Source of the DNA: an uncultured bacterium
GTDB taxonomy: Bacteria > Eisenbacteria > RBG-16-71-46 > CAIMUX01 > WJJG01
Direction of reading: 5' to 3'
DNA: 64,000 nt
NCBI GenBank assembly: GCA_964417675.1
Contig: CAYQJL010000282.1
Location: 148,794-212,793, forward strand
Made by a program: the position numbers and the translations under genes. Below the pieces are notes generated by a model that saw nothing but the letters and a program-made list of their open reading frames with translations, had not been told where the DNA came from and searched no databases. Of the stretch, positions 47,208-58,133 are shown one piece after another (positions within the stretch are counted from its first letter, which is position 1; each line of letters begins with the position of its first letter).

Positions 47208-48842
47208 GTGGCGCATCTCTATATGGTTCATGAATCGCAGGCCGGAATCGTCGCCGAGTCGACACGCTCTGATTCCGCCAGGCATCGTGCCTGGCGGCCG
47301 GGACCTTCGCCCGAGTCGGGAGAAACACCGTCACAAGCCGTACAGCCAAGATCGGGCCGCGCGCCACGGAAGCCTCATGCCAGGCTCTTTCGTGGGCGTC
47401 GGCACATGTCCGCAAACGAAGTGGTCGGCCATCTGCGAGAAGCCGTTCACAACATGTACAACGCGGAGATGAGCGCCTGTGTGTGGTTCAGTGAGATTCT
47501 CCGCCGGGAGCTGTATCGCACATACGGCTATGCTTCGATTCACGCCTTCGCCTCCGAGGAACTCGACTTCACTCCCAACCGAATCGCCCGCTATCTGCGG
47601 TTGATCGAGGATCTCAGGGACTTACCCCGCACCCGCAGCGCCCTCTATTCGGGCCGGATCGAGTGGACGAAGGTGCGCGAGATTGCCAAAGTGGCAAGTG
47701 CCCGCAACGAGCGGAGTTGGCTGAAGTGTGCATCCCGATGCAGCCGCCGCGAACTGGAAGCCCTGGTCAGACGCGCCAAGAGGAAGAATGACCTCGCTGC
47801 CCGCCAGAACGATCAGCAGCCCAACCTCCAGGCCCTTCCGTTGCCATCGACGCAACCCGGGACTCAAGTCGCAAGAGGAGAGCAAACACCGGCGGCGTCA
47901 ATATCCGTGGCTGGCGCCCCCGCCGGATCGCCCAGCGCCTCCGCCGGGGCTGTCGCCCCCGACGGCCCGCCCGGCGATCTCAGTGCCGCTGAGAGCAGTG
48001 TCCCCGACGGCCCGTCCGGCGATCTCGGTGCCGCTGAGAGCAGTGTCCCCGACGGATTCCTTGGTTCTGCCGACGTCTTCGGGCACGGTGAGGTACAAGG
48101 TTCTGAGGAGCTGGCTGCCGACGGACCCGTGTCGGTCCTCCTTCGCCTGCTTCCCGTGGAGGCTGCCCAGTTCGAGGCGCTGCTTGCCAATGCCAGAAAG
48201 CAAGGGCTGTTCCCACCCAACACGACGAAGGCCCAGATCGTCTTGCAGGCACTGCATGCGTTCGTCGCATCGGCCTCGCGGCCGCGGTCGATCGGAACCC
48301 ACGCCCCCGCCGTCGATGAACGCACCACAGGGACCGTGACACCCGATGCGTTCTCCCCGCCTGAAGATGACGGCATCCAGTCTTCGGATGACAACCCTGG
48401 CCGCGTGCCGAACCGAACCGACTCTCTCCCGAGCCCCGGGAGTCCCTTGCCCCGGGGCACAGGATCAACTCCTTATCAAATAGTCATTTACAAGTGCGAA
48501 GCGTGCCAGAAAGCGACGGTCCAGACTCAGTTGGGCCCTCGACGAGTGGGCCGCCCTGTTCTCGAAGCGGCCCACTGTGATGCCGTCCTGATCAAACCCG
48601 GGAGCCGGAATCGCTCATCTATACCTCCCTCGGTACGGAGGAAGGTCATGGTACGCGACGGACACCGATGCAGAGCTAGGGGATGCCAGAATACGCAGTT
48701 CCTTGAGGTTCACCACATCGTCCCCCGGGACCGGGGTGGATCGAACCACCCTGACAACCTTGTCGTGCTCTGTAGCATCTGCCATCGGCTGTGGCATGAG
48801 AAGAACCTCGACGAGCGGTTTCTGAAGCTGACCACGCAATAG
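47208..48842 (+). CDS. DUF222-like N-terminal domain protein with C-terminal HNH endonuclease
   Basis: GTG start with a strong SD AAGGAGG 6 nt upstream. The C-terminal HNH motif is RCRARGCQNTQFLEVHHIVPRDRGGSNHPDNLVVLCSICHRLWH. The N-terminal helical region (ILRRELYRTYGYASIHAFASEEL...RIARYLRLIEDLRDLP) resembles the DUF222 domain that typically precedes HNH in this family. An internal 45-bp x2.2 tandem repeat sits at 47958-48055. Confidence 0.8.
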   Translation: MAHLYMVHESQAGIVAESTRSDSARHRAWRPGPSPESGETPSQAVQPRSGRAPRKPHARLFRGRRHMSANEVVGHLREAVHNMYNAEMSACVWFSEILRRELYRTYGYASIHAFASEELDFTPNRIARYLRLIEDLRDLPRTRSALYSGRIEWTKVREIAKVASARNERSWLKCASRCSRRELEALVRRAKRKNDLAARQNDQQPNLQALPLPSTQPGTQVARGEQTPAASISVAGAPAGSPSASAGAVAPDGPPGDLSAAESSVPDGPSGDLGAAESSVPDGFLGSADVFGHGEVQGSEELAADGPVSVLLRLLPVEAAQFEALLANARKQGLFPPNTTKAQIVLQALHAFVASASRPRSIGTHAPAVDERTTGTVTPDAFSPPEDDGIQSSDDNPGRVPNRTDSLPSPGSPLPRGTGSTPYQIVIYKCEACQKATVQTQLGPRRVGRPVLEAAHCDAVLIKPGSRNRSSIPPSVRRKVMVRDGHRCRARGCQNTQFLEVHHIVPRDRGGSNHPDNLVVLCSICHRLWHEKNLDERFLKLTTQ

Positions 48843-52613: not shown

Positions 52614-53984
52614 TCACCAGCCTTGAGGCACCAATTCGAAGTCGCCGTAACCATTTCGATCCACGAACACGAACCTCCGGCCAAGACGATCGTAGAACCA
52701 CACCTCGAGGGTGCGGCCGTAGTAGCTGTGGCGATCTCGAGTGATCTCGTCCGGAGCCCCATACGTGATGTAGATCTCACCGCGGTCGGTCTGCCAGCCG
52801 GGCCGCATGACACCGAAACTTCGGTTGGCGAAGTTCACACGCTGGATGAATTCCTCTTTGAACTCGTTGACCTCGCTCTCCGGGGTGGGGTCCCGCTTCT
52901 TCCAGAACTCGCGCCAGAGAGCCCACCGTTCCTCTGGAGGGGCGGCGCGCAGGGGATCGATCTCATCGTCATGGGCGATGAGGTTGAGCACATCAATCGA
53001 CTCGCGCAAGAAGCGCGCCAAGGCTTCCGGCGACTCTGCCAGAAGGCTGACCGACGTCTGCGCCTCAAGGGTGTACTCACTCACTCGAGCGTTAACGTCC
53101 AGGAGATAGGCATCCAGCCATAAGTCCGCGACTGGGATCGGCCAGCACAGGGACGACAAGTCTCGTTCGCCACGGACACCCGCTTCTCCCTCTCGGACCA
53201 TTCGTCCGCCAGAGTCGGTAAGCCTCCACCTCAGTTCTATCTCAGGATACTCAAGCCCCTGATGGTACAACTCGGCATACACGCACAGCGTGTCTCTGGG
53301 CTCTGCGAACTCGCGGTGCAGGAGTCCGTCCTGCCGCAGAGACGTCAGACCCGCGGTGTGGCCACACTCCCCGAGCAGTACCTCCGAGAGGAAGGGCCGG
53401 CCAGGGACTCGAATGGGCAGCTTGCCCCCCACGCATACCTGGCCTTCCTGGCCGGAGTTGGGCTCCGAAACCCGCACGCTGAACCCATACCGCCCGGGTG
53501 TCAGCCGGAAGACAATGTCTTTCTCGAAGCGGGCACCCCGGCGGTGAATCTCGCCCCGATCGGGGATCTGTAGGCTCACGGGCCAAAGGTCCCCGGCCAC
53601 CTGACGGTCTTCCTGGAAGGCATGCACGATGATTTCGAATTCGGCCCGATACCCGCTCTCCCCTTTGCGAAAGCAGAGCTCAGTGTAGGGAACCGTCACG
53701 TGAAGCAGCGCACATGTGCTGTCATCCTGAACCGCGGCACTGACCTCAGCGCGGAAGCGGGGACGCTGGAGGTTCTCCGCCCGGGCGGGAGCATCGTGAC
53801 GGCATGGCGCCGCCATGGCGGGCCACGAGAAGCAAGCAGCCGAAGCCAAGCAGGCAGCCCAAACCAGCCCAATTGGCCATGCCGAGCGGCGGAGTCCGCG
53901 GCAACTCGGACGTAAGCTCTGGAGCTCCCCCAGCTGGTTGGAGGCACGCGCCGATGTCCTGGTTCGCCTTGGCATGATGCCCAT
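52614..53984 (-). CDS. GWxTD-domain protein
   Basis: A signal peptide (IGLVWAACLASAAC) and a C-terminal GWQTDRGEIYITYGAPDEI...WFYD core match the GWxTD family as I recall it. Confidence 0.75.
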   Translation of the reverse strand: MGIMPRRTRTSARASNQLGELQSLRPSCRGLRRSAWPIGLVWAACLASAACFSWPAMAAPCRHDAPARAENLQRPRFRAEVSAAVQDDSTCALLHVTVPYTELCFRKGESGYRAEFEIIVHAFQEDRQVAGDLWPVSLQIPDRGEIHRRGARFEKDIVFRLTPGRYGFSVRVSEPNSGQEGQVCVGGKLPIRVPGRPFLSEVLLGECGHTAGLTSLRQDGLLHREFAEPRDTLCVYAELYHQGLEYPEIELRWRLTDSGGRMVREGEAGVRGERDLSSLCWPIPVADLWLDAYLLDVNARVSEYTLEAQTSVSLLAESPEALARFLRESIDVLNLIAHDDEIDPLRAAPPEERWALWREFWKKRDPTPESEVNEFKEEFIQRVNFANRSFGVMRPGWQTDRGEIYITYGAPDEITRDRHSYYGRTLEVWFYDRLGRRFVFVDRNGYGDFELVPQGW

Positions 53985-54157: not shown

Positions 54158-55252
54158 CTACTCGTCGCCGAAACGCGTGCCGACCATGCGGGCCACGTCG
54201 ACGATCTCGGACTCGGGATCAACGAGTCTCAAGGACTCCACGGCCTCAGCGATCGGGACTTGCGTGATCTCCGTCCCTCTCAGTGAAACCATGACATCCT
54301 GCATACCCAAGGCGGCACACTTTGCTGCATGAACCCCGTAGCGTGTCCCCAGGATGCGATCATGGGCCGTTGGGCTTCCGCCCCGCTGCAGGTGACCCAG
54401 AACGGTAACGCGCACCTCATCGTCGAGTTGCCGCTCGAGCTCCGCGGCCAGCCAGTGTCCGATCCCCCCCAGCCGGACGGCATCGGTCGAGTCCTCCACC
54501 CGTTTGGCCACCACCAGATCGCCGTCCTGCGTCTTGGCACCCTCCGCCACCACAATCAGGGTGTAGTCGCGGCCCTGGAATTTGCGGTCTTTGATCGCGC
54601 TCACGACGCCGTTTACGGTGAAAGGGATCTCCGGCACGAGAATGATGTCGCCTCCGCCCGCCAATCCGGCCTCGAGGGCGATCCAGCCGGCGTAGCGCCC
54701 CATGACCTCGAGAACCATGACCCGGCCGTGGGATTCGGCAGTAGTGTGGAGTTTGTCGAGGGCCTCGCATGCTGTTGTGACGGCTGTATCGAACCCGAAG
54801 GTCACGTCGGTCGCCGCAAGATCGTTGTCGATTGTCTTGGGGATTCCGATGACCGGCATGCCACGCTTGCCCAGATCCCTGGCAATCGAAAGACTCCCAT
54901 CCCCACCAATGACCACGAGCACATCGAGCCCGTAACGCTCGAAGGTCCGCATCGCCTCCTCGGAACGATCCTCGTACTCGATCTTGCCGTTCACCTTCAC
55001 AGGAACGCGGAAGGGATTGTCCTTGTTCGAAGAACCGAGAATCGTTCCGCCGCGATGCAGGACGCCGGACACCGCATCCGAATCCAACCGAGTCATACGA
55101 TCCCGAATCAGCCCGGCAAATCCGTTGAGAAACCCCACGACGTGCATGTCGTGACGAAAGGAGGCCGTCTTGACCAATGCTCGCAGTACAGCGTTCAGCC
55201 CCGGGCAATCACCCCCACCGGTGAGCACCCCCACTCGTTTGACCTTGCCCAT
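54158..55252 (-). CDS. pfkA: 6-phosphofructokinase
   Basis: MGKVKRVGVLTGGGDCPGLNAVLRA, IGGDGSLSIA and the PKTIDNDL fructose-6-P site. A strong SD AAGGAGGA lies upstream. Confidence 0.93.
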   Translation of the reverse strand: MGKVKRVGVLTGGGDCPGLNAVLRALVKTASFRHDMHVVGFLNGFAGLIRDRMTRLDSDAVSGVLHRGGTILGSSNKDNPFRVPVKVNGKIEYEDRSEEAMRTFERYGLDVLVVIGGDGSLSIARDLGKRGMPVIGIPKTIDNDLAATDVTFGFDTAVTTACEALDKLHTTAESHGRVMVLEVMGRYAGWIALEAGLAGGGDIILVPEIPFTVNGVVSAIKDRKFQGRDYTLIVVAEGAKTQDGDLVVAKRVEDSTDAVRLGGIGHWLAAELERQLDDEVRVTVLGHLQRGGSPTAHDRILGTRYGVHAAKCAALGMQDVMVSLRGTEITQVPIAEAVESLRLVDPESEIVDVARMVGTRFGDE

Positions 55253-55491
55253 TCGTCGCCTCCTCCTTGAGACTGTGCCTCTGATCCTACGCGGACATGG
55301 CGCAAATGCGCCACCCCGGGGTCAACGATCCGCCGCCCGGGTGGGATGCCACGCTCAGGATGAATCCTAGCCGATGGATGGCTGAAGAGCTAGAACGGCT
55401 AGATGCTCACAATCAACCTCGGCTTTCCGCGTGCCGATCTAAAGGGAGCCGGCGGTTCTGGCTCTCCGTCGGGGGGAAGGAGTACACCAGA

Positions 55492-56883
55492 ATGAAACGC
55501 GTGAGACCCTCGCGCAAGCAGCCACGAACCGCGGCTTCAAGGTCTCGGATCCCACGGTCGCCTGCAGGGACGGCCACACCCTCGAAGCGTCAGAACCTTG
55601 GCACGGAGCAAGCACCTTCCAGGGGCAAGAGAGGCTCAGAGGAGGGAACGCTGTCCAGGGAGCGCAGGCGCGCCGCGGAGCAAGCTCCCGCCAAGACTCC
55701 TTCCCGGAAGCGCACGCCGAAGGAAAGCCAGAAGCCGTCCAGGAAGGTTTCCGGCAAGAGTGGGCCGGCCAAGAGCGGTCGGCCTGCCAGTGGGGTGCCT
55801 GCGGACCACAAGGGGCGTGCCGGCAGCAAGGGCGCTGCACGGCAGGCCGATCGCGCCGGTCGGGCCGGGGACGCCACTTCGCTCTCCCAGAACGCGTCGC
55901 AGCGCAAGCGGGCCGCCAGGAAGGCACGCGGCAGGCGGCAACCGCTAGTCCGACCCGAGACCGAAACACTCCTTCACCTGGAAGACCTCTTGAAGAGCCG
56001 CATTGTCGGCAAGGACGAGGCGATCCAACGCGTGGCCGATTCGATTCGGATCCGCAGAACCAATCTTGACTTCCGACCGCAGCGCCCAGACGGCAGCTTC
56101 CTCTTGGTGGGTCCTCCAGGTGTCGGGAAGTCCGAATTCGCGCATGCCGTGGCCGAAGTTCTGTTGGGAAATGAGAGTCTCGTCGTTGACCTCGACATGG
56201 CAGACTACACCGAGGAAGAGGATGTGGAGGATCTCCTGGTCACGGCCTATCCCGGTGTCGAGGGGCTGCTGGTCGAGGGCGCTCTCACCACGCCGATGCG
56301 CAAGAATCCCCGCTCCGTGATTCTCTTCCACGGCATCGAGCGGGCCCATCCGGCCGTGCTGCGCCTCATGATGCACGTACTCGAACGGGGTGTGATCTCG
56401 GACGCTCAGGGCGAAGTTGTGTTCAACGAAGCCATCGTCTTCGCAACGACGCGCCTGCTGTTCGAAGACGGCGAGGTGGTGCAGCAGATCGGTTTCAAGC
56501 GTTCGACAGCCCCTCACGAGGACAGGGTGCGCAGGATGCTGGAAGATCAGTTCTCACCGGAGTTGGTCAGCGCCTTCAACGAAGTGCTCTTCTTCAAGGC
56601 GCTGACTCCGGAGGATGTCCGTCTCATCGCGCGGTTCAAGGTCAGCACTGTCCTTGAGCGGCTCAAGAAGCAGAAGCGCGGCGTGGTTATCAGCGACCGC
56701 GTATGGGACACATTCATCTGGGAGGACGAGGTCAGAAGGACAGGGGCCCGCTATCTGAATCGGGCTCTTGAGGAACGGTTGTTCACGCCGCTGTCGAAGT
56801 ACCTGCTTGAGCACTCCACTGCCCGGAGCATTCTCGTGGACGTTCGCGATCGCAAGTTGGTGATCCGCCACGACGAGTCATGA
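55492..56883 (+). CDS. standalone ClpA/ClpB D2-like AAA+ domain protein with a degenerate Walker B and a basic N-terminal tail of about 200 aa
   Basis: SD AAGGAG lies 10 nt before the ATG at 55492 (verified). The first roughly 200 residues are K/R/S/P/A-rich low complexity. After that, LEDLLKSRIVGKDEAIQRVADSIRIRR...FLLVGPPGVGKSEFAHAVAEVL (Walker A intact) aligns with the Clp D2 domain. The Walker-B position reads SVILFHGIERAHPAV, where Clp has SVILLDEVEKAHPDV. Confidence 0.8.
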   Translation: MKRVRPSRKQPRTAASRSRIPRSPAGTATPSKRQNLGTEQAPSRGKRGSEEGTLSRERRRAAEQAPAKTPSRKRTPKESQKPSRKVSGKSGPAKSGRPASGVPADHKGRAGSKGAARQADRAGRAGDATSLSQNASQRKRAARKARGRRQPLVRPETETLLHLEDLLKSRIVGKDEAIQRVADSIRIRRTNLDFRPQRPDGSFLLVGPPGVGKSEFAHAVAEVLLGNESLVVDLDMADYTEEEDVEDLLVTAYPGVEGLLVEGALTTPMRKNPRSVILFHGIERAHPAVLRLMMHVLERGVISDAQGEVVFNEAIVFATTRLLFEDGEVVQQIGFKRSTAPHEDRVRRMLEDQFSPELVSAFNEVLFFKALTPEDVRLIARFKVSTVLERLKKQKRGVVISDRVWDTFIWEDEVRRTGARYLNRALEERLFTPLSKYLLEHSTARSILVDVRDRKLVIRHDES

Positions 56884-57005: not shown

Positions 57006-57971
57006 CTAGTCCCGGTCATCGGGTATCCAACCCGCAACCAGTTGTGCGATACCCGCCGCGAACTGCGGGCCGATCTGCTCGGCCATCAGCATCACCTCTT
57101 CGTGTGACAGCGGTCTGGCGGACAGACCCGTACCGAGGTTGGTGATCAGTGAGGCGGCCACTGCATCGACACCGCAGCGAGCCGCCTCCTCGACTTCCAC
57201 AACCGTTGACATACATGCGGCTTGCGCTCCCACGCGCCGCGCCATCTCCACCTCGGCGGCCGTTTCGTAGGCCGGGCCCAGACACCCCATCAGTACCCCG
57301 CGAACCGTCCGGAGGCCCGCCGCGCTGAGCACGCGATAGAATTCTTCCGTGCGACCGGGGTGATAGGGCGTCCCGCGCCCGGCATCAGCCTTGACAATGC
57401 CCTGGAGGGGACCTGCTCCGAGGAGCAGGATGCGAATGTGGTCCTCGACCACCATGATCGTGCCAGGCGTGATGTTGGGATCGAGCGAGCCGGCGGCATT
57501 GGTGAAGATCATCCACCCGGCTCCAAGCGCCGCGGCCAGGCGAACGGCAAAGGTGACATCCGGCCGTTCGTAGCCCTCATAGAAGTGCACCCGGCCCTGG
57601 AACACCAACCCCACATGCTGACCGGAGATCCTGTCGCTCCCTCGCCGGGCCTCGATCTCGCCTGGAGCGTGGCAGCCCGTCACATCCTGGCCGCCGGTGT
57701 CAGCCTCGCTGCCACCGGCACGCAGGGCTCCGTCCGCGCCCGACCCATCCCATCGCACGACTGCCATGCGGCCAGCGTGCCCCGCCACTGTCGATCTCGG
57801 GTATCCCGGTATATCCGCGCCCTGCAGGGTCGTGACCGTGGGCCATGTCTCAAGCAGGCTGCCGAGGCCCGACCCCAGCACGATGCCCCCCACCACCTGT
57901 GCATCCCCTATCGCACGCTGAAGATGCGCGAGGGTTTCTGCGGAAATGCCGAAGCGATCGCCAAGAGTCAT
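57006..57971 (-). CDS. purine nucleoside phosphorylase (PNP/MTAP family)
   Basis: Trimmed to MTLGDRFGISAETLAHLQRAIGD (ATG verified). VLGSGLG phosphate-binding motif, HFYEGY, and a C-terminal MSTVVE..ASLITN region. A Gly/Asp-rich insert sits after the first beta-strands. Confidence 0.85.
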   Translation of the reverse strand: MTLGDRFGISAETLAHLQRAIGDAQVVGGIVLGSGLGSLLETWPTVTTLQGADIPGYPRSTVAGHAGRMAVVRWDGSGADGALRAGGSEADTGGQDVTGCHAPGEIEARRGSDRISGQHVGLVFQGRVHFYEGYERPDVTFAVRLAAALGAGWMIFTNAAGSLDPNITPGTIMVVEDHIRILLLGAGPLQGIVKADAGRGTPYHPGRTEEFYRVLSAAGLRTVRGVLMGCLGPAYETAAEVEMARRVGAQAACMSTVVEVEEAARCGVDAVAASLITNLGTGLSARPLSHEEVMLMAEQIGPQFAAGIAQLVAGWIPDDRD

Positions 57972-58133
57972 GTTCCCACCCGCGTCATCGTTTCCACCCG
58001 CATCGTCGCTCCCACCGGTATTGTCGGTCGTACCGCTCCCATGAACCCGTCTTGCGAAACCCACAGCGGCCATCGAATCCAATCACATTCAACCCAGCAG
58101 CAGCTTCCTCCGTTCCACAAGAGGCCGCGGCGG

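Follow-up and report, generated by a model that had tools for sequence, protein, structure and literature searches.

The window, meaning the whole 64-kb stretch of DNA analysed (64,000 nucleotides), carries on its plus strand an open reading frame at positions 55492-56883, which is a genuine conserved gene of the uncultured phylum Eisenbacteria. The following features were located at this locus, with positions counted in the window and the basis of each assignment in brackets:

55477-55482, plus strand: Shine-Dalgarno-like AAGGAG, 9 nt 5′ of the ATG at 55492-55494 (read directly)
55492-56883, plus strand: coding sequence, 463 aa plus stop, one ClpC-type D2 AAA+ module with a basic tail fused in front of it (ORF listing, Pfam, PDB matches, about 52 orthologues)
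55492-55941, plus strand: disordered polycationic tail, residues 1-150, rich in K/R/S/P/A/G/T (composition, AlphaFold)
55945-56595, plus strand: large alpha/beta AAA+ subdomain of D2 type, residues 152-368 (Pfam AAA_2, pLDDT >90, Foldseek to ClpC D2 and ClpB NBD2)
56110-56133, plus strand: Walker A or P-loop, G207-P-P-G-V-G-K213-S214 (alignment, census)
56248-56268, plus strand: pore-loop-1 position, Y253-P-G-V-E-G-L259 instead of PPGYVGY (alignments, census)
56317-56340, plus strand: degenerate Walker B, V276-I-L-F-H280-G281-I-E283, canonical hhhhDE-x-E (PDB alignment, family alignment, AlphaFold)
56452-56454, plus strand: sensor-1 position, R321, canonical Asn (alignment, census)
56488-56496, plus strand: I333-G334-F335, aligned with the [hydrophobic]-G-F loop by which ClpC/ClpX/ClpA dock on ClpP (alignments, census, AlphaFold)
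56572-56574, plus strand: arginine-finger position, A361, canonical Arg of F-R-P-E-F-x-N-R-I-D-E (alignment, census)
56602-56880, plus strand: D2-small (lid) subdomain and C-terminal strands, residues 371-463 (Pfam ClpB_D2-small, pLDDT 89-97)
56743-56751, plus strand: sensor-2 G418-A419-R420, retained (alignment)

The gene had been predicted to possess its own ribosome-binding site and to be transcribed divergently from pfkA, and the AAGGAG preceding its ATG is in agreement with the first of these claims. A longer alternative frame is open from an ATG at 55297; the start at 55492 is favoured by the orthologues and by P0001 (463 aa, 99% identical), which begin MKR.RPS. The upstream gene on the opposite strand is indeed PFK (54158-55252, E 5e-104), and the gene under study stands alone between divergent and convergent neighbours. 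However, the divergent arrangement has no evident meaning; pfkA lies between this gene and a GWxTD-domain gene in only some lineages, and it is the latter that was kept as a neighbour in 8/8 genomic contexts. A literature search on GWxTD returned no papers. No ClpP, ClpX or ClpS gene was found within about 10 kb in the eight genomic contexts or anywhere in the 64-kb window, nor was a Clp ATPase gene adjacent in any context examined. A tblastn search with an E. coli ClpP query gave no match in the window or in loci L001-L067, a result that is uninformative for the rest of the genome. Scanning the locus for promoters and terminators revealed nothing recognisable, and no CIRCE or CtsR-type heat-shock operators could be recognised in the upstream regions.

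About 55 orthologues were collected, all attributable to Candidatus Eisenbacteria. When the family alignment was used to scan GTDB genomes, the matches listed included one Eisenbacteria locus (L007, 61% identity), the rest being canonical ClpC/ClpB at 32-38%; the scan pattern was a back-translated Walker A that also matched generic Clp genes, and its output is thus no measure of gene frequency in Eisenbacteria. Short proteins from other phyla among the top 150 profile matches were considered as D2-only relatives and discarded as fragments or canonical proteins with DE, Tyr and the arginine finger. The near active relative P0082, considered as an eisenbacterial ClpC ancestor, is annotated as Chloroflexota, and this search gave no lead to the origin of the family. 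A role as a defence AAA+ protein was rejected because the PADLOC matches were partial and to generic AAA only (≤60 bits); the genomic context is of housekeeping type and syntenic across the phylum.

The folded part of the protein gives above-gathering Pfam matches to AAA_2 at residues 198-360 (97.7 bits, cutoff 27) and to ClpB_D2-small at residues 371-443 (33.3 bits, cutoff 21.9). The top PDB sequence matches, covering query residues 152-459, are the D2 domains of ClpC and ClpB (E 6e-48 to 4e-46), which are not separated by overall sequence similarity (6e-48 versus 1e-46). The AlphaFold model, with core pLDDT >90, matched ClpC in Foldseek at E 3e-29 and reached target-normalised TM-scores (TMt) of up to 0.85, this value being obtained with T. 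thermophilus ClpB NBD2 (4lj7) at about 34% identity. The predicted fold is therefore that of a ClpC/ClpB D2. Only one AAA+ module is present (residues 152-463), and the two modules and N-domain by which class-I Clp proteins are defined are not found; likewise, no folded part precedes residue 152 in the AlphaFold model, which indicates that the M-domain is absent. The stand-alone Clp-D2-type module lacking N-domain, D1 and middle domain that had been proposed was thereby recovered, although its proportions had to be revised, the homologous C-terminal part extending over about 310 aa rather than 260, and the basic tail over about 150 aa rather than 200. The view that no described family covers the protein also held. 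NCBIfam equivalogs scored 115-200 bits against cutoffs of 885-1900, missing them about 6-12-fold (ClpB, the highest score, 200/1232; ClpV 169/885; ClpA 148/993; ClpK 155/1900; ClpG 137/1900), and no paper on this protein family was found in the literature search.

The N-terminal tail is as basic and as low in complexity as had been described. Residues 1-158 contain 15 K and 29 R versus 3 D and 8 E, corresponding to a net charge of +33 and a pI of 12, with KRSPAGT accounting for 79% of the residues; AlphaFold predicts disorder, with pLDDT of about 50 and no secondary structure. A tail is present in all full-length orthologues, where it is unalignable and ranges from 44 to 162 aa, with a net charge of +9 to +52, K+R of 25-41%, KRSPAGT of 76-93% and a pI of about 12. 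One apparently tail-less member, P0042, proved to be a gene-calling artefact, as its open frame continues further upstream, where a short, Arg-rich tail is encoded. The tails are always basic and acid-poor, and in several members they are Lys-rich although the sampled loci all have 62-69% G+C, which argues that the charge is selected and is not a product of composition drift. Within the tail, a tandem repeat search (TRF) detected only a 9-nt repeat of 2.7 copies, and Pfam gave no match, not even to a DNA-binding domain when E values as high as 1 were allowed.

The nucleotide pocket was compared residue by residue in a family alignment of 46 sequences and in a census of 56 family members versus 266 canonical relatives. 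Walker A is intact (GPPGVGKSE), with G207, G210, V211, G212, K213 and E215 invariant in 46/46 sequences; the P-loop Lys is followed by T, S, N or A, depending on the family member, Asn or Ala occurring in 13/55 relatives in the census. At Walker B the protein reads S-V-I-L-F-H280-G281-I-E versus SVVLLD(E/A)IEKAHP in ClpC, so that H280-G281 takes the place of both acidic residues, as originally noted; the corresponding codons lie at 56329-56334, and not within the 56300-56320 interval first given for them. The register is confirmed by the AlphaFold strand 276-280, which ends on H280. The substitution is also conserved in orthologues, the pair being [R/H/Q][G/A/W] in all 55-56 members (RG 45, HG 6, QG 3, RA 1 and RW 1, n=56) and DE in the 266 canonical relatives, and it thus reflects selection rather than error.

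Three further losses had not been listed. The sensor-1 Asn, found in 243/266 canonical relatives, is replaced in the family by R in 47 members (46 plus P0071), T in 4, H in 3, Q in 1 and S in 1. The arginine-finger position, which is R in 264/266 canonical relatives, is A in 52 members and other residues in 4, Arg occurring in none. At pore-loop-1, G-V-E-G is found versus G-Y-V-G, and the Tyr present in 240/266 canonical relatives, the aromatic residue that grips the substrate, occurs in 0 family members. The acidic stretch E241-D247 precedes this loop; its first Glu is common in canonical Clp proteins too, giving the stretch little weight as a family innovation. On the other hand, E283, A285 and H286 vary little or not at all across the family, and the sensor-2 GAR is retained in the main clade, the deep clade reading GAS, GAG or GAK. 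Because the deep clade lacks the sensor-2 Arg and has Asn or Ala following the P-loop Lys, nucleotide binding may not be universal in the family. In ClpB NBD2, hydrolysis needs the Walker-B Glu, the sensor-1 Asn and the sensor-2 Arg, and nucleotide binding is possible without sensor-1 (PMC3940203). As judged from the alignments, all elements for ATP hydrolysis or polypeptide pulling, namely the Walker-B Asp and Glu, the sensor-1 Asn, the trans arginine finger and the pore-loop Tyr, are replaced family-wide, and the earlier prediction of a pseudo-ATPase is strengthened accordingly by the three additional losses.

One element outside the pocket has resisted this decay. The tripeptide I333-G334-F335 is invariant in 46/46 sequences of the alignment and 56/56 of the census. 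The Walker-A Ser/Thr and the sensor-2 Arg are less well conserved than this tripeptide, having been eroded in the deep clade. ClpP partners are recognised by a tripeptide of the form [L/I/V/A/M]-G-[F/L] that tips a flexible loop following sensor-1, and the IGF agrees with this form; the loop columns flanking it are variable (1.4-3.1 bits entropy), with a loop pLDDT of about 63. Two independent pairwise alignments match it to a ClpC tripeptide, one to the VGF of the B. subtilis protein and the other to V673-G674-F675 of a Bacillus ClpC. The same columns are VGF, LGF, IGF or MGF in about half of the 266 active relatives, and a [hydrophobic]-G-F is present in all nearest active relatives inspected (P0081, P0082, P0085, P0086 and P0160). 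In known systems, the loop-tip motif docks in the H-sites of ClpP, and its mutation abolishes binding (PMC12521514; bioRxiv 10.1101/2022.09.15.508104). In S. aureus ClpC, it is the AGF 671-673 loop that docks in these sites, and E620 and K621, the pair following Walker B, contact the ClpP hairpins (PMC12521514); at the equivalent pair the present family has E283, which is invariant, and then R, K, H or Q. It was also demonstrated that the ClpP gate opens when IGF loops or ADEPs occupy the H-sites (PMC9035409). The likeness to a ClpA/ClpB D2 originally proposed stands as regards the Clp-D2 type, but the invariant IGF places the module with the ClpP-binding ClpC/ClpA type and not with the ClpB type. 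The IGF had gone unmentioned in that description.

Taken together with the retained pocket and IGF loop, the losses point to a protein that probably caps or regulates ClpP without using energy. The reading that we prefer, at a probability of about 45%, is that of a nucleotide-binding protein which would neither hydrolyse ATP nor thread substrates, would still dock on ClpP, and would use its basic tail for targeting or capture. A nucleotide or other phosphate ligand would be bound as a structural cofactor without turnover, Mg2+ possibly being replaced by the sensor-1 Arg and by the Arg or His found in place of the Walker-B Asp, and substrate threading would be impossible. Docking would take place via the IGF loops, as a monomer or an oligomer. 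H-site ligands, i.e., IGF loops and acyldepsipeptide (ADEP) activators, order the N-terminal gate of ClpP and open its axial pore, so that docking would either give an open energy-independent cap or block a ClpP face. In the first option, preferred at roughly 60:40, the cap would admit unstructured polypeptides; in the second, occupancy of the face would create competition with active unfoldases. The polycationic tail would take over targeting from the lost N-terminal domains, tethering the complex to polyanions (nucleoid, RNA/ribosomes, polyphosphate) or capturing acidic or disordered clients. We infer ClpP binding from the homology of only three residues. Moreover, hexamer assembly of ClpA and ClpB rests largely on D1 and arginine-finger contacts; a D2-only protein without the finger may form no ring, and the single IGF loop of a monomer would give only weak binding to ClpP. 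The most elaborate version of this reading seems rather unlikely: it would make the protein the first natural ATP-hydrolysis-independent ClpP cap, either the fossil of an unfoldase ring or monomers clustered by a polyanion, fixed in a nucleotide-bound state, with IGF loops holding the gate open and histone-like tails placing the protease on nucleoid, RNA or polyphosphate.

The alternative that survives best, unlikely as it also is, follows the original prediction of a nucleic-acid- or polyanion-binding regulator. Here the dead D2 would be a nucleotide-sensing oligomerisation platform displaying several histone-like tails, and the protein a nucleoid-associated factor or RNA chaperone with no link to ClpP. 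The disordered H1-like tails with the composition given above, the invariant P-loop and the solitary position of the gene in a neighbourhood without a protease gene are all consistent with it. However, the binding idea, drawn from composition only, is at best half the story, because the module carries an invariant IGF of the ClpP-docking type, whose presence in an exposed flexible loop with drifting flanks would be left unexplained. The tail, for its part, has no conserved motif and no Pfam DNA-binding domain, and its length varies fourfold.

It is less probable still that the protein acts as a non-catalytic subunit or regulator, mixing into or stacking on hexamers of the host ClpC, ClpA or ClpB and tuning them, in analogy to Torsin with LAP1/LULL1 or to the inactive subunits of other AAA+ rings. 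Its D2 fold, including the lid, is the same as in such partners, the nucleotide pocket is conserved, and the partner-dependent Torsins provide a precedent for a lost arginine finger and pore loop (PMC4999309). Nevertheless, an arginine finger supplied by a partner could not substitute for the absent Walker-B Glu, the sequence indicates no specific partner, and none of the contexts has a Clp ATPase gene next to this one. The IGF would be invariant without a direct role, unless the mixed ring itself docks on ClpP.

A still-active ATPase or unfoldase with non-canonical catalysis, using E283 two positions downstream or a His/Arg chemistry, is very improbable. Although the P-loop is intact and E283, A285 and H286 are (nearly) invariant, five separate functional elements have been lost together, and the canonical Mg-ATP geometry does not accommodate Arg or His in place of the Asp that coordinates Mg2+ (PMC3940203). 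The downstream Glu is common to canonical Clp proteins and does not rescue catalysis, since the double Walker-B mutant of ClpC in the PDB, which reads LLDAIEK, retains that Glu. Finally, an artefactual origin, whether by pseudogene decay, by faulty sequencing or assembly, or as a chance frame in GC-rich DNA (where many long spurious ORFs arise and several overlap 55492-56883), has practically negligible probability and is ruled out by the orthologue set, whose members are 39-75% identical and come from independent assemblies (NCBI, JGI, ENA, Logan), with the frame intact, 48 core columns invariant and the genomic position conserved; in addition, three nucleotide changes would be needed to restore DE from CAC GGC.

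ClpP is thought to depend on ATP-burning unfoldases, and the only energy-independent activators of it known to us are small molecules, the ADEP-type antibiotics that mimic the IGF loop. A family which discarded its catalytic and threading residues and kept the IGF and P-loop invariant across a phylum suggests, on the strength of its alignments, a natural motor-less ClpP partner. Such a cap or regulator would probably be a kind of protein not described so far. If the docking reading is true, it would introduce a new regulatory principle in bacterial proteolysis, that of gate control or occupancy without unfolding, would allow docking and gating in Clp proteases to be studied cleanly apart from translocation, and would provide a first functional handle on proteostasis in the uncultured phylum Eisenbacteria. 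If the IGF loop instead binds something other than ClpP, it would have a new partner. Either way, the family represents a clear bacterial case of a conserved AAA+ pseudo-enzyme.

Among known systems, the closest are the D2 domains of ClpC, ClpE and ClpA, which include the top PDB sequence matches and share with the eisenbacterial protein the fold (AAA_2 and the D2-small lid), the P-loop, the sensor-2 GAR, the IE[K/R]AHP after Walker B and a flexible loop with [hydrophobic]-Gly-Phe at its tip, which occupies the same place in the alignment. Unlike them, it has one AAA+ module without N-domain, D1 or M-domain, its Walker-B DE, sensor-1 Asn, arginine finger and pore-loop Tyr are replaced, and a polycationic disordered tail stands where they have folded N-terminal parts. 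With NBD2 of ClpB/Hsp104 it likewise shares the fold (TMt 0.85, about 34% identity), whereas those proteins have an M-domain and two active rings, and the eisenbacterial family has IGF and no M-domain. ClpB itself has no ClpP-docking loop and binds ClpP only when engineered, as in the BAP variant (PMC4023160). Human CLPB/SKD3, which appeared in the PDB search at E of about 1e-19, is built in a comparable way, with a single ClpB-D2-type AAA+ module behind a non-AAA+ N-terminal region (PMC9934407). Unlike the eisenbacterial protein, SKD3 is active as a disaggregase, carries ankyrin repeats and canonical motifs, and lacks a ClpP loop.

Torsins are eukaryotic members of the same HCLR clade, single AAA+ modules without arginine finger or pore-loop motif, and their sensor-2 is Gly-Cys-Lys (PMC4999309). 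A Lys at sensor-2 is shared with the deep clade, where G-A-K occurs. The deep-clade Walker-A G-K-N likewise resembles the GKN of Torsins. However, Walker B and sensor-1 are retained in Torsins, which hydrolyse ATP when a partner (LAP1/LULL1) provides the finger; the eisenbacterial protein has lost both motifs. In addition, Torsins are ER-luminal and lack a ClpP-docking loop or basic tail, whereas the eisenbacterial protein is bacterial and cytoplasmic, with no hydrophobic N-terminal signal segment. The resemblance is thus one of convergence and not of membership, finger and pore loop having been lost in both, which shows that this path of decay was followed twice.

Disordered tails of H1-like type, rich in Lys, Arg, Ala, Pro and Ser, occur in chlamydial Hc1/Hc2, in Pseudomonas AlgP and in the C-tail of mycobacterial HupB. 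The eisenbacterial tail is similar to these in composition, with no sequence similarity or repeat motif detected between them. As regards function, the proteasome caps Bpa/PafE (bacterial), PA26/PA28 and PA200/Blm10 are non-ATPases; they place a short hydrophobic motif in pockets of the protease ring, and the gate then opens to unstructured substrates. We know of no natural protein of this ATP-independent kind for ClpP. The ADEP-type ClpP activators are non-ATPase ligands that occupy the ClpP pockets and open the gate (PMC9035409). If the preferred model is right, both the caps and the ADEPs are functional analogues only, unrelated to the eisenbacterial protein in sequence and fold. As a ClpP cap, this protein would be the counterpart of PA28 or Bpa in the bacterial Clp system, and a natural experiment on what a ClpP partner can be once its motor is taken away.

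The Clp-D2-like gene is monocistronic and encodes a 463-aa product. An alternative longer frame starts at 55297; the start was set at 55492, since the closest orthologues and P0001, which comes from a different assembly and is 99% identical, begin with MKR.RPS. The resulting layout is as follows.

55477-55482, AAGGAG, 9 nt before the ATG
55492-56883, + strand, open frame of the Clp-D2-like gene
Residues 1 to ~150, low-complexity N-terminal tail (AlphaFold pLDDT ~50, no secondary structure)
Residues 152-463, AAA+ module (Pfam AAA_2 and ClpB_D2-small; AlphaFold pLDDT above 90, confident)

Some 45-95 nt before the start codon, a stretch reading AATCAAC.TCGGC...TGCCGATCT..AGGG is shared by window positions 55395-55450 and ~9905-9960 of L003, the locus of a 71%-identical orthologue. 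This stretch is a candidate promoter or 5'-UTR element; a promoter/terminator scan upstream of the gene found no sigma-70-like and no terminator-like site.

Residues 152-459 align with the second AAA+ module (D2) of ClpC and ClpB (phmmer against PDB sequences; E 6e-48 to 4e-46), and an identical register was obtained by BLASTP against a Bacillus ClpC and by MAFFT alignment with canonical relatives. The AlphaFold model also supports this register, with the Walker-B strand at 276-280. The elements of the window protein are given below with a residue census over 330 aligned sequences.

Functional elements in the window protein, the family (n=56) and canonical relatives (n=266)
Walker A: GPPGVGKS, intact
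Walker B: V-I-L-F-H280-G281 in place of hhhhDE; pair in family RG 45, HG 6, QG 3, RA 1, RW 1; canonical DE 266
Pore loop: G-V-E-G in place of G-Y-V-G; aromatic position in family never Y; canonical Y 240
Sensor-1: R321 in place of Asn; family R 47, others 9; canonical N 243
Arginine finger (Arg of N-R-I-D-E): A361; family A 52, never R; canonical R 264
Sensor-2: G-A-R, kept

The loss of the Walker-B acidic pair, as stated in the original prediction, was thus confirmed, although that account was incomplete, four separate functional elements being gone in total. In ClpB NBD2, hydrolysis requires the Walker-B Glu, the sensor-1 Asn and the sensor-2 Arg, while binding without sensor-1 is possible (PMC3940203). 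Additionally, PDB structures of a ClpC mutated in both Walker-B motifs show the sequence LLDAIEK and therefore retain the Glu found two residues downstream (E283 here), indicating that this Glu does not rescue catalysis. The window protein does not qualify as an active AAA+ ATPase or as a threading unfoldase and scores below the cutoff of every NCBIfam Clp equivalog; it does have the fold and the ClpP loop.

A word-indexed protein search returned ~52 single-module proteins (258-470 aa; E 6e-293 to 6e-50), separated by a clear gap in the ranking from the two-module Clp proteins. All available source names were Candidatus Eisenbacteria, with one contig labelled Eisenbacteria (the phylum is Candidatus Eiseniibacteriota at NCBI). 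Among the best 150 matches inspected from a HMMER scan of the family profile against 1.84 billion cluster representatives, only five were full-length family representatives and four were fragments, the rest being canonical Clp. Core identity within the family is 39-75%, with 48 invariant columns, and the Gly-x-x-Gly-Val-Gly-Lys of the nucleotide P-loop is invariant across the aligned members. A deep clade (P0041-P0050 and P0071-P0074) is eroded further, with Asn after the P-loop Lys and the sensor-2 Arg replaced by Ser, Gly or Lys. This amounts to strong purifying selection on a protein unable to work as a conventional ATPase. The Walker-B substitution is conserved in 56/56 family sequences. 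Sequencing error as its source was rejected, given a conserved family in which no member carries DE.

The original prediction had overlooked a flexible loop (residues 321-341, AlphaFold pLDDT ~63) between the sensor-1 strand and the former arginine-finger helix. Its tripeptide Ile333-Gly334-Phe335 does not vary among the aligned members (46/46) or in the wider census (56/56), is flanked by columns of 1.4-3.1 bits entropy and is better conserved than parts of the family's own nucleotide pocket. In both pairwise alignments it falls on the VGF of ClpC (V673-G674-F675 in Bacillus ClpC). In S. aureus ClpC, the corresponding AGF (671-673) sits at the tip of the 'P-loop' docking in the hydrophobic ClpP H-sites, and its mutation abolished ClpP binding (PMC12521514). 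B. subtilis ClpC carries VGF and ClpX carries IGF, which binds more tightly (bioRxiv 10.1101/2022.09.15.508104). Canonical relatives showed VGF, LGF, IGF or MGF in these columns or were gapped, the latter presumably being ClpB-type proteins. ClpB binds ClpP only with an engineered loop, the BAP variant being an example (PMC4023160). With IGF at the ClpC docking-loop position, the module is of the ClpP-partner type (ClpC/ClpA/ClpE) and not of the ClpB type. In S. aureus ClpC, the pair after Walker B, E620 and K621, touches the ClpP hairpins (PMC12521514); the family keeps this pair too, with E283 invariant and R, K, H or Q next to it.

Residues 1-158 of the window protein contain 15 Lys and 29 Arg versus 3 Asp and 8 Glu (net +33, pI 12), K/R/S/P/A/G/T making up 79%. 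In all full-length members the tail is basic (44-162 residues, net charge +9 to +52, K+R 25-41%, few acidic residues, pI ~12) and precedes a mildly acidic core (pI 5.3-6.8 in most, up to 8.8 in a few). Tails of different members do not align, and the searches of the tail for tandem repeats and Pfam domains gave no repeat and no match. Several tails are Lys-rich despite 62-69% G+C at all sampled loci, so that selection acts on the positive charge. Clp homology starts at Q-P-L-V-R-P-E-T-E-T-L-L, which corresponds to the D1-D2 linker I-P-V-x-K-L-x-x-x-E-x-x-x-L-L, which puts the cut in the ancestral protein precisely at the junction with the first module (D1). The one member that seems to have no tail, P0042 (308 aa, JGI gene call), is a gene-calling artefact: at its locus (L091 7884-8000) the frame is open for >110 codons upstream of the called start and encodes the Arg-rich segment MTRDEASASGAGRTGSRKGGPRAPRTRRKPARSPGPRQT, so that the call is truncated.

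The genes around the Clp-D2-like gene are the following.

52614-53984, - strand, GWxTD-domain gene beyond pfkA (TIGR04514 108 bits, Pfam PF20094)
54158-55252, - strand, PFK (pfkA), divergent neighbour
57006-58082, - strand, PNP/UDP phosphorylase, convergent neighbour and first gene of a nucleoside ABC-transporter and salvage cluster

Eight orthologous contexts share a common backbone with varying downstream genes, and of the neighbours the GWxTD gene alone is retained in 8/8, upstream of the AAA gene and divergent from it; pfkA sits between the two in the window, the P0006 loci (L003/L004) and L091. The literature search returned no paper on GWxTD proteins, which are uncharacterised. No ClpP, ClpX, ClpS or other Clp gene was found nearby in the window or at the orthologous loci, and the synteny was read as vertical inheritance within the phylum and not as a functional clue. 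The phosphorylase ORF is listed with 358 aa versus 281-291 aa at orthologous loci; its Pfam match begins only at residue 152, after a Gly/Asp/Ala-rich low-complexity N-terminal part (GGSDDAGGNDDAGGN), and an extra Gly/Ala/Asp-rich segment follows 'VVRWDG', which suggests a start called too far upstream together with a lineage-specific insertion. Elsewhere, between a ThrRS-like region and glycosyltransferase genes, lies a 544-aa ORF (47208-48842, + strand) whose sole recognised domain is an HNH endonuclease at the C-terminus (Pfam E 1e-9). Its resemblance to RNA-guided IscB is weak and partial (53 bits against a cutoff of 175). The ORF is not listed at the equivalent place in L001 and L003 and may therefore be a mobile insertion.

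From the observed fold, lost motifs, invariant P-loop, invariant IGF and basic disordered tail, we tentatively propose a dead ClpC-type D2 module that works with ClpP and uses its tail for targeting (probability about 0.45). The protein would bind a phosphate ligand without hydrolysing it, ATP or ADP being the simplest choice. The Arg/His at the Walker-B Asp position and the sensor-1 Arg would place positive charge where Mg2+ normally sits; considering that a different Arg, R621, can take the Mg2+ site in ClpB NBD2 (PMC3940203), Mg-independent nucleotide locking is conceivable, the R621-equivalent residue not being Arg in the family. Substrate threading would be absent due to the loss of the pore-loop Tyr. 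Docking on ClpP would occur via IGF, a predicted binding that rests on three residues. Because IGF loops or ADEPs in the H-sites order the ClpP N-terminal hairpins and open the pore (PMC9035409), the protein could act as an energy-free open cap admitting unstructured polypeptides, or could occupy a ClpP face and compete with active unfoldases. The tail would stand in for N-terminal targeting domains, binding polyanions or acidic clients. Without D1 and arginine fingers, a ring may not assemble.

The pure polyanion-binding scaffold originally suggested accommodates the tail and leaves the IGF conservation aside, and seems a clearly weaker candidate. The protein could instead serve an active Clp ATPase as its regulator or as a subunit without catalytic activity, in the manner of Torsin/LAP1, which is rather unlikely. 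A non-canonical active ATPase would have the P-loop in its favour against the missing catalytic residues and is very improbable. An artefact is practically out of the question in a family of this extent.

A second, separate degenerate Clp-like family has two modules and ~620-650 aa (P0054-P0059, also P0121 and P0138; L087-L089 8001-9914, L090 8001-9890). Its D2 Walker B reads E-Q, E-N, E-H or D-G, and E-Q is what the classic E-to-Q trap mutation creates artificially; Gly or Ala stands at the arginine-finger position and the pore loop has no Tyr, with the VGF ClpP-type loop, sensor-1 Asn and GAR mostly kept. Its D1 is likewise degenerate (GPHGVGKR; VVLFLDN), and its locus is conserved (cvpA, degenerate Clp gene, aldehyde dehydrogenase, infC, rpmI, rplT, pheST). 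One of the active proteins most closely related to the single-module family's D2 is P0082 (Chloroflexota, 728 aa; tblastn 191 bits versus 132 for Bacillus ClpC), which combines a degenerate D1 (Walker A GEPGLGRR, Walker B FVDGLQ) with a canonical D2 carrying an LGF loop.

Database labels of the single-module family are generic ('AAA domain-containing protein', 'ClpA/B/C'), and within the library searched no paper described an Eisenbacteria single-D2 family. It represents a conserved, phylum-wide AAA+ pseudo-enzyme with the protease-docking motif retained; among known entities, the D2 of ClpC/ClpA/ClpE comes nearest to it. Torsins, members of the same clade, are a convergent parallel: they similarly have neither arginine finger nor pore loop and carry Lys at sensor-2 (PMC4999309). 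However, Torsins keep Walker B, unlike this family.
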